DNA of 30,249 nucleotides from Candidatus Melainabacteria bacterium 17Bon1m (GCA_032128875.1 JAVLKG010000023.1:1-30249); one strand, 5' to 3'; counted from the stretch's first letter, positions 1,195 to 30,072 are shown. Translations and numbers: made by a program. The notes: a model not told the origin generated them from the letters alone.

Positions 1195-1725
1195 TTACTT
1201 CTTGTCGGGCAAGCTGGCGCCATTCAGCTTGACGGCTTTATCCACGAGCAGCTGGATGCGGTCGTTGGTGAACGCTTCCACAATCTGCTCGCCTTCGAAT
1301 GCGCCTTTGTCAGCGACAACGAAAGTGGGGATGATGAGGCAGCCGAAGTCCATCATCATGCTGTTGGACAGTCCAAGGAAAGCCATGCGAGCTCCCTTGC
1401 CACCTGCCGCACACATGAAGCCGACCGTCTTGTCTTTGAAGGCATCGCCTGTCAATTCGATCAAGTTCTTCGCCGCCGCACCCACGTCATAGTTGTAGAC
1501 GGGAGCCGCGATGACGATAGTGGTGGCGTTTTGGATCTTCTGCTTGACGCGCTTCGCTGCCCTTGACTGAGCGGTTTTGCCGCCGTCGAAGAGAGGAAGG
1601 CGTGCCTTGCGCAAATCCAGAAGTTCAGCTTTGCCCTTCTGGCTCAGGAGGCGGTGAGCCTCTTTCGCCAGCAGGAAGCTGCGACTTTCTGGATTCAAAC
1701 TGGTGCTAATCACGAGATATGACAT
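1195..1725 (-). CDS. NADPH-dependent FMN reductase (SsuE/ArsH-like flavodoxin fold)
   Basis: ISTSLNPESRS FMN-binding loop; APVYNYDVGAAAKNLIE (PxYN motif); AAGG loop. Start placed at ATG 1725 because GGAG precedes it (alternative start 1737). Confidence 0.88.
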   Translation of the reverse strand: MSYLVISTSLNPESRSFLLAKEAHRLLSQKGKAELLDLRKARLPLFDGGKTAQSRAAKRVKQKIQNATTIVIAAPVYNYDVGAAAKNLIELTGDAFKDKTVGFMCAAGGKGARMAFLGLSNSMMMDFGCLIIPTFVVADKGAFEGEQIVEAFTNDRIQLLVDKAVKLNGASLPDKK

Positions 1726-1842
1726 TTTTGTCTCCATATTCGGCGAAACACCGAGTGCAAGCTGTTTTCACAACCTGCACCCGGTGCTGCCGGCAAATCG
1801 CAGCTTGCACGCGCCGGAGGATTTCCAGACGCGTGCTGCCGC

Positions 1843-2277
1843 TTACTTCTTGATGGCGTCCTTGATGAACGCCTTGAGCGCCGCCTCGGGCATGAATCCC
1901 GAGTGCAACTTCAGGGCACCGTTGGCGGTGCCGGGAATGTAGACGCCCGTGGTGGGGATACCGCGGAAACCGTAGCGGCTCTTGATCGCCTTGTCGTTGT
2001 CGGTGTTGATCTTGACGAACTTCACCGCCGGCGACATTTCCTTGGCGACCTTCTCATACACCGGCGCCTGCTTCTCGCAGTACGAGCACCAGGGCGCGGA
2101 GAAGAGAACGACCACAGGAACGGTCGACTTCAGAACTTCCGAATCGTACGTGGCTTCGCCAGTGACGACGATGACCGAGCTCTTGCCGGTGGCGGCAGGC
2201 TTGGCCGAGCCCGTTTCAGCGGGCTTCTTGTTTCCGTTGATGGCATCCATGATTTTTCTGATGAGCTCCTTAAACAT
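1843..2277 (-). CDS. Thioredoxin-family protein (WCSYC active site) with N-terminal extension
   Basis: VVVLFSAPWCSYC, FVKINTD, GIPT cis-Pro loop; AAGGAG precedes ATG at 2277. Confidence 0.85.
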   Translation of the reverse strand: MFKELIRKIMDAINGNKKPAETGSAKPAATGKSSVIVVTGEATYDSEVLKSTVPVVVLFSAPWCSYCEKQAPVYEKVAKEMSPAVKFVKINTDNDKAIKSRYGFRGIPTTGVYIPGTANGALKLHSGFMPEAALKAFIKDAIKK

Positions 2278-2379
2278 AGGTGGACTCCTTTGGAATCGTA
2301 GAGTTAGAGAGAGCAGCTGAGTGCTCTCTGACAGGAAGGAAGGAGGGAAGCGCGACAATCGCGCTCCCCTAAGATGGGC

Positions 2380-20614: not shown

Positions 20615-21478
20615 TTACGCCTTAGTCGTTTTGACCACCGATTGATAGAGGGCGTCGGTTGCTTTCTGTCCTTGTCTGAGCGCTGCGTTCATTTCCATCT
20701 CTGTGAAAACACCGCGTCCTTCCAGGACTTGTCCCGGCATGAATTTTGCGAAGCGGTTGCCGTCTCTCAGCGTTGCAGTTGCGAAATCTGTGCCCAGCAT
20801 GGAATTTGCTTCGTACTTCAGATCAAAACCGCGAATCGGTCCTTTGCCTACAGTAGATGTGAATGAATGGACACCGTCCGAGCTTCTCAAGAATTGTGCG
20901 GCATCGCCATATCTGTTGATGGCGTTGATGGGATTCAAACCAAGGAATTCGCTCTTTGTGGTGGAAACGACGGTGGCGTCAGCGCCCATGAATACTTTGC
21001 CGTTCTTGTCGATAAACTCGCCGCCCAACCTCAGCGAACCGCGTAGCCGGTCAGCCATTTCAGTACCCAGTGTTTCGGCGTTGCGTGCGGCGACTTTCGC
21101 ATAAGGGGAAAGATCGGCAACTCCTGTAGCTGCTGTCTTGAGTGTTTCGATACCACGTCCTGCAGCCGCTAGAACTTGTCGGTTGATGCCATATTTTTGC
21201 AGTCCGGCTCCCGCTGCGAAAAGTCCTACACCAAGCACATAATCGGCGGTGGAAAAGCCGGCCGAGTTTTCAGCCTCGGCAACTTGTGCCTGAACCTGCG
21301 CTTCTTCTGCTTTGGTGCCGGCTACTTGTGTTTGAGTCGACTCAAGAAGAGTTGCGGAAGGATCTTTGGTTGCTAAATTTTCCGCTTGTCCGTCAACATT
21401 CTCGGTCAGCGCTGCGCCGTCTTTTGAAGCAGCTTCAGCGGCCTTACCGGTCTGTGCCGGATCAAAGTTTTCAACCAT
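20615..21478 (-). CDS. Hypothetical protein (acidic low-complexity N-terminus, one hydrophobic segment)
   Basis: 287-aa ORF with AGGAG RBS; YVLGVGLFAAGAGL hydrophobic stretch; no recognised domain. Confidence 0.72.
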   Translation of the reverse strand: MVENFDPAQTGKAAEAASKDGAALTENVDGQAENLATKDPSATLLESTQTQVAGTKAEEAQVQAQVAEAENSAGFSTADYVLGVGLFAAGAGLQKYGINRQVLAAAGRGIETLKTAATGVADLSPYAKVAARNAETLGTEMADRLRGSLRLGGEFIDKNGKVFMGADATVVSTTKSEFLGLNPINAINRYGDAAQFLRSSDGVHSFTSTVGKGPIRGFDLKYEANSMLGTDFATATLRDGNRFAKFMPGQVLEGRGVFTEMEMNAALRQGQKATDALYQSVVKTTKA

Positions 21479-24813: not shown

Positions 24814-25239
24814 TTATTTCTTGATCGGCATAACGCGCAAATTATGGATGCCACAACCTGCAGCTGCGTCCATGACTGCGACTACGAATTTTTGTCTGGC
24901 ATCGCCTTCAGCAGTAAGCATGAGCGGAATGTCTGTTTTTCCGGCTTTCGCTTGCTCGGCTTTGATCACGGTGGAAACACCGGCCGAATCAGGTGGATTT
25001 GCAGGCACGTTGTTAATGCGAATTTGTCCTGCGGCTGTAACTTCGACGTTCAGCTTCGGTCCTTTGTCGTCGTCCTTCGCCTTAGATGGTCCGGCACTTG
25101 GCGGATCGACCTTCAGAACGGTCTGATTGACGAGCGGTGCAATCAGAATCATGATGACCAGAAGCACGAGAAACACGTCAGTAAGCGGGGTTACGTTGAT
25201 TTCTGTGAATGATTCACCGGCGCGACCACCTATTGCCAT
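24814..25239 (-). CDS. exbD: ExbD/TolR family biopolymer transport protein
   Basis: EINVTPLTDVFLVLLVIMIL with the conserved TM Asp; VVAVMDAA..G C-terminal motif; AAGGAGG RBS. Confidence 0.9.
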   Translation of the reverse strand: MAIGGRAGESFTEINVTPLTDVFLVLLVIMILIAPLVNQTVLKVDPPSAGPSKAKDDDKGPKLNVEVTAAGQIRINNVPANPPDSAGVSTVIKAEQAKAGKTDIPLMLTAEGDARQKFVVAVMDAAAGCGIHNLRVMPIKK

Positions 25240-25759
25240 GTGAACAGCCTCCTTACCCGGGCGTCGTGTTCTAGTTTTGAGGACCAGATTTCTAGTCTAA
25301 GGTCATATAGTACCTGCAAGTGGCAGGGCGTGCCACATGGTAAACCCTGACCTTCACACAAGGCAGTTTTCGCCCGCTAGCATAGCCGCGCTAGATCCTG
25401 GTTCTAGCGGGTTTTCGGGCTTTAGTATTAGAAATTTACTCGCCTGCGCGAGCGTAGCGATATAAGCCTTAGCTAAGACTATGAGTCTGTGGGCTTCTAA
25501 CGGTTTTAGCCTATTGAGTTTGTCAAGTGGGTCTTGTTAGGCTCAAATCCCATTTCTTTTCAATTCTCAGGAGCTGAAAACACAGACTAGCGCGATAAAT
25601 TACCTATTCGGTTCTTTACTGATTCACCTTGATGGGGGTGAAGCGAACACACCGGATGTGTTCTCGCATAGACATTCTGTGGCTTTTCTCCTCGATTGGT
25701 TCAGACGTTTGCGCTGACCACATTTAGCCAGGCGTTTTCGCCAAGAACTAGGAGTTACT

Positions 25760-26899
25760 ATGACCAACATGAACAAGATCAATGGCCTCTGGGTACCCCA
25801 GCACGCCAACGTCGTAAATCACACACACTTGGACTGCGTCCTGCGTCACAGCGATGTGGTGCGGCTCGCCGCCCAGGCCGGTTTCGACACCTTCAAGGAG
25901 CCGTTTCCGAAGCTGACCGAAGACCTCTGGCGCACCGCCGAGCTCCTCGCCAAGACCGGCACCGTGAAGGACCGCGCCCTGATTGCCCGGCTGCAGCGCC
26001 GTGCCGTTTCCGCCTACCGCGAAGACTGCTTCGCTCGTGGCGGCGACCTGACGGCATACGTGGCTGCCATCGCCAATCAGCTCGTTCCGCTCATGCAGAC
26101 GGTCGAGAACATCAAGCTCTTCACCAAGCACTACATCGAAGACCTCGTCGCCGACCACACCATCGGTGCACAGATTCGCTTCGCCCCGCACCTGCACATC
26201 TTCGGCGGTCTCTCGCTCGAAGCTGTCGTCGAGGCGGTTGCCGAAGTGACTGCCAACGCGCCCATTCCGATCAAGCTCATCCTCTGCGCCCTGCGTGGAC
26301 CGGACGGTGAAGCGAAGCGGAAGGAAGCGAGGGAAGTCGCGGACCTCTGCATCAAGTACAGCGCCGAAGTCGGTGCCATGGACCTCGCGGGTGCCGAAGC
26401 CCTTTGGGGCGGCGTTCCGCAGTGGTGGTGGCTCGAAGCCCTGCGCGCGCGCGAGGCTTCCGGCGGCGAGTGCGGCATTACGCTGCACCTGGGCGAAGTT
26501 CAGCCGGCCACGCCGGAGGAAATCGCTCTGCTGAAGGAGAACGGCGTGTTCGTCGTTGGGCACTTCCTGCACAACGATGACCCCGACCTGTATCAGGAGT
26601 GCTGCCCCCACTCGAACCTGACGCTGCATGCTCACCCGAGCCTGCAGAGCGGCCAGTTCCGCTGCCATTCCATTGGGCGTAAGCTCAAGGAAAAGCAGCA
26701 CGTCATGCTCTCCACTGACGGCACGACCCTGATCAAGACCAGCATGCGCATGCAGATGTCCCTCGGGCGTCGCGCTTTCGGCTGGACTGGCAAGGACCTG
26801 CATCAGCTGAGCCTGAACGCCATCAACGGCGGCTTCTACAACGAGGCCGACAAGAAGAACATGCGCAAGCAGCTCAAGCTGGCGTATGGCGCGAAGTAA
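25760..26899 (+). CDS. Adenosine deaminase-like metallo-amidohydrolase (divergent)
   Basis: HTHLD, IRFAP, DLAGAE, TLHLGE, VGH, ECCPHSN, LSTD match the ADA-family motifs in order; AGGAG RBS. Confidence 0.85.
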   Translation: MTNMNKINGLWVPQHANVVNHTHLDCVLRHSDVVRLAAQAGFDTFKEPFPKLTEDLWRTAELLAKTGTVKDRALIARLQRRAVSAYREDCFARGGDLTAYVAAIANQLVPLMQTVENIKLFTKHYIEDLVADHTIGAQIRFAPHLHIFGGLSLEAVVEAVAEVTANAPIPIKLILCALRGPDGEAKRKEAREVADLCIKYSAEVGAMDLAGAEALWGGVPQWWWLEALRAREASGGECGITLHLGEVQPATPEEIALLKENGVFVVGHFLHNDDPDLYQECCPHSNLTLHAHPSLQSGQFRCHSIGRKLKEKQHVMLSTDGTTLIKTSMRMQMSLGRRAFGWTGKDLHQLSLNAINGGFYNEADKKNMRKQLKLAYGAK

Positions 26900-27218
26900 G
26901 GCTTAAGGTTCCAGTCGCAAGACTAGAATTTTAGGCTAGCTTCAACCCAGTCGCGTTGGGCAGTTCATTAGCATCTTCACGCTGTGAGGTGCTGCTGAAC
27001 TGTCCATCTGCTCTTTGGCAGGCACGCTCTCGGGCGTGTCGCGACAGGGGATTTCCTCCAGTCGTGCGCGTAATTCTGTGCGTACGACTTCAGCGTGTCG
27101 ACTCCACCGGTGGTGCTAGGGAGTCGGGCACGGTCAGTGTGTGCAGCGTCGGATACGTTGCACCAGGTTGCTTCGAGTGTCCACTGCTCTCGAAGACACA
27201 AACACGGAGCGTAAAAAC

Positions 27219-27494
27219 ATGAAATTGGTCAACAGCCTCGAAATCATCGGTGAACCCACTCGCGTCGACCAGCAGGTCGCCTGTCCCGGATGCAGCGCTC
27301 GCGCGATGCTCTTCAACGACGGGTCGGTCCTCTGCATCGCCGAGGGCGGCAAGTGCTATGCGCCGGAGCCGACCGACGGAGAGAAGTGGCAGATGCGCCA
27401 GGAGTTCGACGCGAAGAACGGCATCACGCCTTCCGACCGTCTGCTCATCCCGGCTCGCCTGCAGAGCGAACTCGCCGAAAGCCTGCAGGACTAA
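27219..27494 (+). CDS. Small Cys-containing (putative zinc-ribbon) protein
   Basis: GGAG RBS and ATG 27219; CPGC...C-x6-C; strong C/G third-position bias. Confidence 0.7.
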   Translation: MKLVNSLEIIGEPTRVDQQVACPGCSARAMLFNDGSVLCIAEGGKCYAPEPTDGEKWQMRQEFDAKNGITPSDRLLIPARLQSELAESLQD

Positions 27495-27653: not shown

Positions 27654-27699
27654 GAGAGCGGCGGGTGTAATCACCTGATTCCCCGCCGCTCTCATTTTT
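27654..27699 (+). terminator. Intrinsic terminator closing the deaminase cluster
   Basis: GAGAGCGGCGGG / CCCGCCGCTCTC 12-bp perfect stem followed by ATTTTT. Confidence 0.7.
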
Positions 27700-29031: not shown

Positions 29032-30072
29032 ATGCAGAACAAAACTATTCATCACCGCCGTATCGCAAAAAACAATCGATCGGCACAAATCATGCAATTT
29101 ATGGTGTCAAATGCAGACCAAATCATCCCACAGGGAGAGATTCGCCGTTTTTCTTCAGGTAGCGTACACAAAGAAGTTTTAGAGCAAATTTTTGGAGAGT
29201 GGCCGTCCAACTTCGCGGAAAAGGATGATGACCCAAGGCGCGCAAGAGCGTTCGCAGTTGTTCGTCAAATCTTGCATTTTTACTACCACGAGCACGTTTT
29301 CGACAGGTTTGTTTTCGAGGGTTACATAGACGGTCTTACGCACATGGATCGTTTGCTGTCGTTTTACTCCTACGAAAACGCTGTCAACAAGGCGCATTCC
29401 CTGGTGCACGAACGGCTCAGCTTGCTCAATCACATCGAAGCTGTTTTCTTCAACACGACCGACCAGGGAGATCGCCAGCGCAAGCGCGTTAATCAATCAG
29501 GACAGGCAGTTTCAGAGAATGAATCCTACGTTTTTGCACTTCGTGAAGGGTTGAGGTACGGTTTACTTCTAACTCTTGCGCAGACAGCTGATGGGTTTCA
29601 GCAGCCGGAAGTCGCGAAGTTCTACTCTGCGGACCTCGACTTCATGGTCAACGAACAGCCACGCATGAGTGTGAAACACGTCGATCGCCTTCACGTGCCC
29701 ACGTGCGATGCGTCCGCTAACGGACTGAAACAAGCGCTCGAATTCATCCGCATCGTGTCGATGGTTGAGGTTTGGAATCGCCACGACAAGTCGCTCTACA
29801 ACCCAATCAGCGACCCTCTCTGCAATCGTTTCAAGCGCATACTTACAAGCGATGACTTGCAAGTTTTGTTCGTCAAGGCACTGCGCGCAAACAAGCAGAT
29901 GTTCCACTTGTTCCGCTTGGGCTGTGGCAATGAGTCATGTGTGCCAGCAATAGGCAATTTCATTTTCTACCTGGACGTGCCCGCTCACCAAGTCCCCAAA
30001 TGCCATATCGCAGCTGTGTTGCAGCCGCTTGAGATAGTGGCCAGTCAGGACAACAACTGGAAAAATAGGTAG
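29032..30072 (+). CDS. Hypothetical protein
   Basis: 346-aa ORF followed by a terminator-like hairpin; no recognised motif; start uncertain (alternative ATGs at 29092 and 29101). Confidence 0.7.
   Translation: MQNKTIHHRRIAKNNRSAQIMQFMVSNADQIIPQGEIRRFSSGSVHKEVLEQIFGEWPSNFAEKDDDPRRARAFAVVRQILHFYYHEHVFDRFVFEGYIDGLTHMDRLLSFYSYENAVNKAHSLVHERLSLLNHIEAVFFNTTDQGDRQRKRVNQSGQAVSENESYVFALREGLRYGLLLTLAQTADGFQQPEVAKFYSADLDFMVNEQPRMSVKHVDRLHVPTCDASANGLKQALEFIRIVSMVEVWNRHDKSLYNPISDPLCNRFKRILTSDDLQVLFVKALRANKQMFHLFRLGCGNESCVPAIGNFIFYLDVPAHQVPKCHIAAVLQPLEIVASQDNNWKNR

Follow-up and report, generated by a model that had tools for sequence, protein, structure and literature searches.

A folded spacer between two co-directional genes

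The DNA analyzed here is a whole contig of 30,249 nucleotides (nt) from Candidatus Melainabacteria bacterium 17Bon1m (GCA_032128875.1, JAVLKG010000023.1:1-30249), hereafter called the window, which is part of a 7.55-Mb assembly of 35 contigs (93% complete). The host genome belongs to the Obscuribacteraceae, a family of the Melainabacteria (Vampirovibrionia), which are non-photosynthetic sisters of cyanobacteria. The element in question is a 319-nt spacer at 26900-27218 on the plus strand. It runs from the TAA stop codon of an open reading frame (ORF) for a divergent deaminase-like protein to the ATG at 27219 of a small gene encoding a protein of 91 amino acids (aa), and both flanking genes and the spacer RNA are on one strand (Table 1). 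In a preliminary description of the window, this spacer had been singled out as a candidate novel structured RNA, either a non-coding RNA (ncRNA) or an element of mRNA architecture, consisting of seven back-to-back hairpins that lack a U-tract and are followed by an open ribosome binding site.

Table 1. Features of the two-gene unit and of its spacer RNA. Coordinates are those of the window; bp, base pairs; MFE, minimum free energy; R1 and A4 are the covariance model and the alignment described in the text.
Feature	Position	Strand	Basis and remarks
Divergent adenosine-deaminase-family amidohydrolase, 379 aa	25760..26899	+	Pfam A_deaminase, E 6.7e-25; single genome copy
H1, 16-bp hairpin (4 G-U) right after the stop codon	26900..26937	+	MFE fold; no second genome copy
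5' domain, four-way junction	26946..27049	+	MFE fold
P1, closing helix of the four-way junction	26946-26955/27040-27049	+	MFE fold
P2, 22-bp arm (hairpin 2 of the preliminary description)	26957-27006	+	MFE fold
P3, small arm of the four-way junction	27008-27021	+	MFE fold
P4, arm of the four-way junction (hairpin 3 of the preliminary description)	27022-27039	+	MFE fold
H4, 11-bp hairpin	27060..27089	+	MFE fold; hairpin of differing sequence at the same relative place in 10/10 homologues
H5, hairpin with a large conserved loop; CGGTGG 27108-27113 is the 5' half of the proposed kissing loop	27092..27134	+	Model R1, alignment A4
H6, G+C-rich hairpin between H5 and H7	27138..27165	+	Alignment A4
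H7, hairpin; loop CCACTG 27181-27186 is the 3' half of the proposed kissing loop	27167..27199	+	Alignment A4
Shine-Dalgarno sequence GGAG 27206-27209, A-rich spacer, ATG 27219-27221 of the small gene	27206..27221	+	Sequence; conserved in alignment A4
Small gene, 91 aa, four conserved Cys (zinc-ribbon-like), two C-terminal helices	27219..27494	+	ORF, AlphaFold2 model
Intrinsic terminator: 12-bp perfect G+C-rich stem 27654-27665/27682-27693, 16-nt loop, then ATTTTT	27654..27699	+	Sequence

The MFE fold of 26900-27219 on the plus strand has an energy of −148.9 kcal/mol and comprises 114 pairs, 96 of which are Watson-Crick and 18 G-U. All seven hairpins described previously for this spacer of ~320 nt are part of the fold, each in its expected place. 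They are not simply arranged back to back, however, since hairpins 2 and 3 correspond to P2 and P4, two arms of a four-way junction. Hairpin 1 (26900-26937) is present but not conserved in relatives: it is private to the genome of the window, and nine homologues have other sequences or hairpins there. Nor is the ribosome binding site open in this fold, in which the Shine-Dalgarno (SD) sequence pairs with 26939-26943, a pairing seen in this genome alone.

When compared with 100 dinucleotide shuffles, the plus strand is far more stable than its base composition would predict (−148.9 versus −112.0 ± 5.3 kcal/mol, z −6.94, with no shuffle reaching the same energy), whereas the reverse complement has a z of −2.87. 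The excess stability over shuffled controls, on which the preliminary description had staked its proposal, is therefore confirmed. Because shuffles are blind to any genome-wide richness in hairpins, we also folded 2008 random 320-nt strand-windows of the host genome and regressed their MFE on G+C. The plus strand of the spacer lies 4.2 standard deviations below the regression line, with just 2 of the 2008 windows as low, as opposed to −0.3 standard deviations for the minus strand in the same background. In a separate sample of 1818 windows, which includes a tiling of this contig, the plus strand scores −3.84 standard deviations. Since 18 of the 114 pairs are G-U, they would turn into A-C mismatches if the fold were read on the opposite strand.

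Bioinformatic analysis of the window with Rfam 15 identified no family at gathering score. With permissive filters, 26850-27300 gave five rows only, with scores of 13.7-17.3 bits as against gathering scores of 31-100 and E values of 1.3-9.9. Four of these are animal microRNA precursors placed on P2, and the fifth is a plant-virus exoribonuclease-resistant RNA on the minus strand. The element thus matches no known Rfam family, as the preliminary description had expected. Its statement that no transfer RNA (tRNA), riboswitch or clustered regularly interspaced short palindromic repeat (CRISPR) consensus can be recognized also holds, considering that ARAGORN finds no tRNA or tmRNA gene in the window, Rfam no riboswitch, and that there are no direct-repeat families in 26850-27250, hence no CRISPR-type array. 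Neither a consensus scan nor reading of the sequence revealed a terminator-like site on the plus strand within 26900-27218, in agreement with the absence of U-tracts noted earlier. No promoter-like site was found on the plus strand of the spacer by a scan limited to sigma-70-type promoters, and a weak match is present on the minus strand (27101-27073).

Two other identities were considered and rejected. The spacer is not a member of a family of repetitive extragenic palindromic (REP) sequences or miniature inverted-repeat transposable elements, as it matches itself alone in the host genome; seven pieces of it, used in short-word BLAST searches, also match only themselves, and the next exact runs are of 18 nt or less. 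It is not a coding region or small ORF either, as no frame is open across all ten homologues (see below), and the frame of the small gene has one to five upstream stops in each of them. Indels among homologous spacers are not multiples of three.

Distribution and structural conservation of the element

A BLAST search with the spacer of 41 related genomes, including that of the window, matched five, all in the genus of the window. The 91-aa protein, used as a query over 101 genomes of the family, has matches in 35. Among 30 small-gene loci that were fetched, 20 have a deaminase-like gene upstream on the same strand. Eight of these paired loci are in the genus of the window, where the deaminase-like proteins are 81-100% identical, the small proteins 82-100% identical, and the spacers 270-520 nt long. 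The remaining 12 are in other genera, with deaminase-like proteins of about 30-36% identity and spacers of 84-268 nt. Eleven of these 12 spacers measure 84-200 nt and contain one or two strong hairpins, in several cases followed by T runs, and the twelfth (genome G018) is 268 nt long with more hairpins. In none of the other-genus spacers is similarity to the module detectable by BLAST or by the covariance model R1 (see below). Conservation of the gene pair across several genera, at ~30-36% deaminase identity, suggests that the deaminase-like protein and the small four-Cys (Cys4) protein may be functional partners. As one or two hairpins separate the same two genes in other genera, a hairpin-based intercistronic element is older than the genus.

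Metagenome contigs supplied two further distinct sequences (L037 and L040), which brought the comparative set to ten distinct sequences, i.e. eight genomes of the genus including that of the window, plus these two. A third metagenome contig encodes a 72%-identical small protein and has neither the deaminase-like gene nor the element. We generated a covariance model (R1) from the RNAalifold alignment of the ten sequences and realigned them to it, which yielded alignment A4. When used to search 104 genomes of the family, R1 gave eight strong matches (89-121 bits), all at this locus and in this genus. The element is therefore found in eight of the 13 genomes of one Obscuribacteraceae genus, in one copy each and always at this locus. 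The five genomes of the genus without it (64-93% complete) also have no close homologue of the small gene, as assessed with the 91-aa query. Three weak matches in other genera (26-34 bits) were rejected as partial matches to the model, none of which is ahead of a small-gene homologue; one precedes a 501-aa ORF and two precede open frames of 22 and four codons. When 151 genomes sampled from the class were searched, R1 recovered the two members of the genus among them that have the locus and, apart from these, only two weak matches of 24-26 bits; a 23.7-bit match in G187, from this class sample, was left out of the member count.

The ten sequences share a constant 3' part and a labile 5' part. 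H4, H5, H6, H7, the SD sequence and the ATG are present in all ten, with the number, order and spacing of H4-H7 kept, and the 3' module ends ~10 nt ahead of the SD sequence. By contrast, the four-way junction of the window is found in six of the ten, which form one clade on the tree of the flanking genes. Genome G002 also forms a four-way junction, though with an unrelated sequence, whereas G009, G004 and L040 have one long hairpin in the 5' part, and G006 has 252 extra bases there that are unique in its own genome. Each of the ten folds contains at least one hairpin with ~20 bp or more, as counted from dot-brackets. Stability is conserved together with this architecture, since the plus strands of the ten homologue cores have z scores of −4.9 to −10.7 against shuffles, and the MFE of the plus strand is 15-35 kcal/mol lower than that of the minus strand in 10/10.

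For the 3' module, RNAalifold predicted 32 pairs from the ten sequences, 17 of them with compensatory change. Pairs were then counted on A4 for the structure including the pseudoknot, the counts being of sequences, not of evolutionary events. In H5-H6-H7, 93.0% of 345 pair cells are paired, versus 82.8% in shuffles and 36-57% when partners are slid. Two-sided changes occur in 19 of 35 pairs, and five measures were reached by none of 500 shuffles. By helix, two-sided changes affect six of 11 pairs in H5 (87.9% of cells paired), four of nine in H6 (96.6%) and seven of nine in H7 (91.1%). The collection of homologues and check for covariation that the preliminary description had proposed thus speak in favor of a conserved structure. 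Because the counts reflect sequences rather than events, we also reconstructed the history of the pairs on the gene tree by parsimony. Changes that preserve pairing number 24 (two-sided) and 36 (one-sided), versus 20 that break it, together with five restorations and 10 gaps. The 5' junction, which could be compared in six close sequences, has 92.9% of its cells paired (35-46% when slid), and only four of its 45 pairs show two-sided change; it is less well supported by covariation than the 3' module.

Mean pairwise identity, calculated over the 28 pairs among eight genomes, is 0.65 for paired columns, 0.42 for unpaired columns and 0.67 for four-fold degenerate sites of the flanking genes. Linkers thus evolve faster than four-fold degenerate sites. 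Considering that pairs are compensated although their identity does not exceed that of four-fold sites, selection acts on shape and not on sequence. Taken together, the lack of an Rfam match, the strand-specific stability in 10/10 sequences, the compensatory changes and the conserved loop-loop pairing described below bear out the proposal of a novel structured RNA, which has a length of roughly 280 nt and a shape, rather than a sequence, under selection.

Comparison of the loops points to one further contact. CRGYGG (27108-27113) in the H5 loop is complementary to CCRYYG (27181-27186) in the H7 loop in all ten sequences. In this putative loop-loop helix, 60 of 60 cells are paired and every cell that is not Watson-Crick is G-U; three of the six pairs vary, and two change on both sides. 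The predicted energy of the duplex between the two loops is −8.0 to −12.9 kcal/mol in the ten sequences, a value that shuffled H7 loops, with 300 trials for each sequence, attain in 0-18% of cases. Among the unpaired stretches of the module, the loops of H5 and H7 are also the most conserved. Outside the loop-loop helix and the SD/ATG region, the unpaired columns identical in 9-10 of the ten sequences are T27090, C27091, C27105 (9/10), T27114 and a few more, in what is a shallow alignment of one genus. These findings make the H5-H7 contact, a candidate kissing loop, a well-founded hypothesis at the level of the modeled structure.

A proposed intercistronic leader and its alternatives

We give about an even chance to the reading that the spacer is a cis-acting intercistronic leader, which uncouples and sets the expression (stability or translation) of the small gene. 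This reading builds on features observed directly in the comparison, i.e. the fold, its strand, its compensatory conservation, its single copy, its constant position ahead of the small gene and its confinement to a single genus. From these, we infer co-transcription of the two genes, processing of the transcript and an effect on stability or translation. Co-transcription is favored by the common strand, the absence from the spacer of a terminator or plus-strand promoter-like site of the sigma-70 type and the presence of a terminator after the small gene. In the proposed mechanism, the spacer would be the non-coding, highly folded middle of a two-gene mRNA and would act post-transcriptionally, in cis, to set the amount of the small protein relative to that of the enzyme. 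Its long duplexes would be places of RNase III-type processing and barriers to decay. The loop-locked H4-H7 module would give the downstream cistron a compact 5' end resistant to nucleases, and would keep the initiation region of the small gene apart from the folded part. The host genome has a gene for RNase III (104.8 bits, above the cut-off) and one for RNase J, and no Rho RNA-binding domain was found in this 93%-complete genome, as in the Synechococcus control. The presence of these nucleases without a detected Rho fits a lineage that relies on RNA structure and nucleases for operon expression. With its 22 bp, P2 resembles the near-perfect duplexes of about two helical turns that are typical of RNase III sites.

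Several points weigh against a leader of this kind. Both cleavage by RNase III and protection from RNase J are assumptions. The covariation of the loop-loop helix taken on its own is modest, with two of six pairs changing on both sides and a score that 26 of 500 shuffles reach, and the ten sequences, being from one genus, are not independent. The predicted probability that the SD sequence is unpaired ranges from 0.08 to 0.85 among the ten homologues, and no conserved alternative pairing with it is predicted among them, nor any shared partner; a simple SD-masking switch is therefore not supported. Evidence labeled as RNA comes from four runs of one sample, in which the locus is found on contigs of 7-18 kb that possibly derive from DNA; 100% of the sampled words were found in these runs, and the contigs span several genes on both strands and show neither ends nor levels. 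Moreover, other intergenic regions of the host genome hold clusters of strong hairpins without an Rfam match. Part of the signal may therefore be a general habit of the lineage, in which hairpin-rich intergenic RNA may be a general trait. As for the tie to the deaminase suggested in the preliminary description, the link is only indirect: the element fronts the small gene, and the gene pair occurs in other genera without it.

These hairpin clusters are at the core of a different account, which we consider unlikely though by no means far-fetched, namely that stable hairpins have accumulated independently of each other, as attenuators without U-tracts, stabilizers of the 3' end of the deaminase mRNA or RNase sites, all of which would be common in a lineage lacking Rho. 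Such generic accretion would imply no specific tertiary fold and no gene-specific logic, and the complementarity of the loops would be incidental. It is in keeping with the other most stable windows sampled in the genome, which are also intergenic hairpin clusters without an Rfam match, and with the one or two strong hairpins (several with T runs) that separate the same two genes in other genera. The turnover of 5' hairpins, illustrated by the private H1 and by the unique extra bases of G006, the unconstrained linkers and the failure to find a Rho domain in the host genome agree with it as well. What accretion does not account for is the constancy of the H4-H7 module, whose hairpins keep their number, order and spacing in 10/10 sequences. 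The conservation of the H5 and H7 loops above all other unpaired stretches, their complementarity in 10/10 with two-sided changes at two positions, and the low proportion of shuffled H7 loops that match the observed duplex energy also argue for a specific contact rather than an incidental one.

The same conserved loops raise the question of a sensor. In tandem-hairpin riboswitches such as guanidine-II, loops are conserved, stems covary and linkers differ, and the module resembles them in having its conservation focused in two loops while stems covary and linkers vary. It is a folded, covarying domain directly upstream of an SD sequence, as expected of a leader domain, it displays a few invariant unpaired bases (T27090, C27091, T27114 and, in 9/10, C27105), and the neighboring gene is predicted to act on nucleobases. 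H5-H6-H7 or the junction might therefore bind a small molecule or ion, perhaps purine-related, which would shift the loop-loop contact and the translation of the small gene. We nevertheless hold a riboswitch-like sensor to be doubtful. No riboswitch family of Rfam matches even at a weak score, and the predictions reveal no expression platform, i.e. neither a terminator nor consistent sequestration of the SD sequence. The sequences of junction and linkers show no conservation and outpace four-fold degenerate sites in their rate of change. Four of the ten homologues have a different 5' domain, and the element is confined to one locus of one genus. The downstream gene, moreover, encodes a small protein of unassigned family and not a transporter or biosynthetic enzyme.

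That the spacer specifies a separate trans-acting ncRNA of ~250-300 nt, made from its own promoter or excised from the operon transcript, appears highly improbable. Its size, stability and covariation would be typical of stable ncRNAs, and the long duplexes could direct excision by RNase III, the gene for which is present. However, there is no promoter-like site of the sigma-70 type on the plus strand and no terminator after H7, the conserved block continues without a break into the SD sequence and ATG of the small gene, the element is never found away from that gene, and its 5' boundary is not conserved. An origin unrelated to RNA, through chance palindromes, inverted repeats bound by protein as DNA or a decayed coding region, is disfavored by the data and deserves next to no credence. 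The loop motifs CCAGTGG and CCACTGG do form an inverted repeat in DNA, and the weak promoter-like match mentioned above is on the minus strand. Yet the 18 of 114 pairs that are G-U would be A-C mismatches on the other strand, all imperfect loop-loop positions are likewise G-U, and the plus strand is the more stable by 15-35 kcal/mol in every homologue. A decayed coding region is at odds with indels that are not multiples of three and with the absence of a frame open in all homologues, and chance palindromes with a z of −6.9 against shuffles.

Among known systems, the preferred reading as a cis-acting intercistronic leader has its closest parallels in the stabilizers and RNase III sites found between cistrons of bacterial and phage operons, such as the REP hairpins in malEFG and the sites of the T7 early region. 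In S. aureus, an RNase III-cleaved leader is reported to set the stability of the met operon mRNA (PMC7913692). The spacer resembles these in having stable hairpins without U-tracts between co-directional cistrons, duplexes of ~20 bp or more, a host with an RNase III gene and a presumed role in the unequal expression of adjacent genes. Unlike them, it is a single-copy element rather than a repeat family, and it has seven to ten helices where they have one or two. It also differs from them by the conserved loop-loop pairing and by the fixed module of four hairpins before the SD sequence. The terminator-like hairpins of other genera occupy the same gap between deaminase-like gene and small gene, and are likewise strong, G+C-rich and closely ahead of the SD sequence and ATG. 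In contrast to the spacer of the window, these spacers are shorter (84-268 nt, and 84-200 nt in 11/12), with one or two hairpins in those 11 and, in several, T runs.

Riboswitches with loop-loop contacts offer a second comparison. In cobalamin riboswitches, loop L5 of the aptamer kisses loop L13 of the expression platform. Three papers deal with this regulatory kissing loop (PMC5028336, PMC10327014 and PMC7367189). The candidate contact described here would similarly be an intramolecular loop-loop helix of ~6 bp between two leader hairpins near a ribosome binding site. Unlike cobalamin riboswitches, the spacer has no match to a cobalamin family in Rfam and no known ligand, and H7 ends at 27199, which excludes the SD sequence at 27206-27209. 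Guanidine-II (mini-ykkC) also has two hairpins with conserved loops, covarying stems and a variable linker, with the loops in contact before the start codon. Its two loops are copies of one tetraloop, whereas those of the spacer are complementary to each other (CRGYGG/CCRYYG). In addition, the spacer has a third hairpin in its linker, no Rfam match and a distribution limited to one genus. As for the purine riboswitch (RF00167), it shares with the spacer the combination of kissing-loop hairpins and a neighboring purine-metabolism gene. It gave no match at any threshold, and the H5-H7 region differs from it in having no closing P1 helix or three-way junction around it and no conserved junction bases; the element also follows the deaminase-like gene instead of preceding it.

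With its narrow distribution, the element is a new RNA motif of a familiar kind, i.e. a structured mRNA leader or intercistronic element, whose novel feature would be the candidate kissing loop. In the library of papers searched, none joins "Obscuribacter" with "riboswitch", and when Melainabacteria or Vampirovibrionia were combined with structured or non-coding RNA, neither taxon was named among the 12 best matches listed. A bolder view, to which we attach little probability, is that the H5-H6-H7 module, locked by its loop-loop contact, represents a novel type of RNA domain with a sensing or protective role. As a sensor, it could be a new riboswitch class with a ligand at the kissing interface, controlling the zinc-ribbon partner of a divergent deaminase. 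If protective, it could be the equivalent in bacteria of exoribonuclease-resistant RNAs and guard the downstream cistron against RNase J, a 5'-to-3' exonuclease, in a lineage devoid of Rho. In either case, the element is tied to a conserved, uncharacterized gene pair, which encodes an enzyme of the deaminase family and a very small Cys4 protein. If it tunes the ratio of the two products, it would be a clean case, provided by nature, of RNA architecture between cistrons in a lineage that lacks Rho; if it is a sensor, it would represent a new class of regulatory RNA and offer a way into the function of the gene pair. The claim is bounded by the narrow distribution of the element, with one genus and ten sequences.

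The flanking genes and further observations

The deaminase-like protein is a divergent member of its family. It scores 113.5 bits against the NCBIfam adenosine deaminase equivalogs, far under their cut-off of 412, and its nearest solved structure is mammalian adenosine deaminase (ADA), with an E value of 5e-11. PADLOC gives it a weak ADA-domain match alone (E 4.3e-06). In an alignment of 13 homologues, H21, H23, D25, H243, E246, H268 and D320 are retained, and D320 is followed by an invariant G321. Canonical adenosine deaminases have a second Asp at the position that matches G321, and because of this difference the substrate of the deaminase-like protein may not be that of the canonical enzymes.

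The 91-aa protein has no family in Pfam, NCBIfam or PADLOC. Its AlphaFold2 model is of high confidence (predicted local distance difference test score of 93.3) and has no fold match in the PDB at E ≤ 0.001; look-alikes in the structure atlas score 0.86 or lower and are all unnamed. A protein search identified 23 homologues, all either unnamed or annotated as "hypothetical protein". Prediction of a complex between the deaminase-like protein and the 91-aa protein gave a score of 0.00 versus a mark of 0.32, which says nothing in either direction. The host genome also encodes a paralogue of the 91-aa protein (G000:C19:43454-43648, minus strand), with 37% identity over 68 residues, which is within a longer open frame, does not have the Cys pairs and has no adjoining deaminase-like gene.

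Upstream of the two-gene unit, 520 nt without a long ORF (25240-25759) separate the deaminase-like gene from a divergent ExbD-like gene (24814-25239, minus strand). This region, which has no Rfam match, presumably holds the promoter and the 5' untranslated region of the unit. Downstream of the small gene, the intrinsic terminator at 27654-27699 is an instance of the form, a G+C-rich stem plus U-tract, that is in use in this genome. It was overlooked by the consensus scan because its 16-nt loop exceeds the limit of eight. In run X3, one of the runs labeled as RNA, a single contig ends at 27688, within the stem of the terminator, and has a loose end that resembles an adapter; it was not used as evidence. 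A gene for a short-chain dehydrogenase on the opposite strand converges on the two-gene unit.

Stable hairpins are found at other places of the window and of the host genome. At about 1738-1842 on the minus strand, between ORFs 1843..2358 and 1195..1737 (both on the minus strand), there are two very stable hairpins, followed by GGAG and an ATG. The strand-window starting at 1606, within 1546-1985 (minus strand), is the most extreme of the GC-corrected sample of 1818 (−4.63 standard deviations) and has no Rfam family. The other top-ranking stable windows (L061-L063) are G000:C8:106155-106594 (plus strand), G000:C19:11956-12395 (minus strand) and G000:C8:263642-264081 (plus strand), which are clusters of strong hairpins without an Rfam match, in or after apparent gene ends. 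Two other ORFs of the contig have no Pfam or NCBIfam family, one of 346 aa at 29032-30072 (plus strand), which has no PADLOC match either, and one of 287 aa at 20615-21478 (minus strand). Across windows of 500 nt, the G+C of the contig ranges from 0.42 to 0.66.

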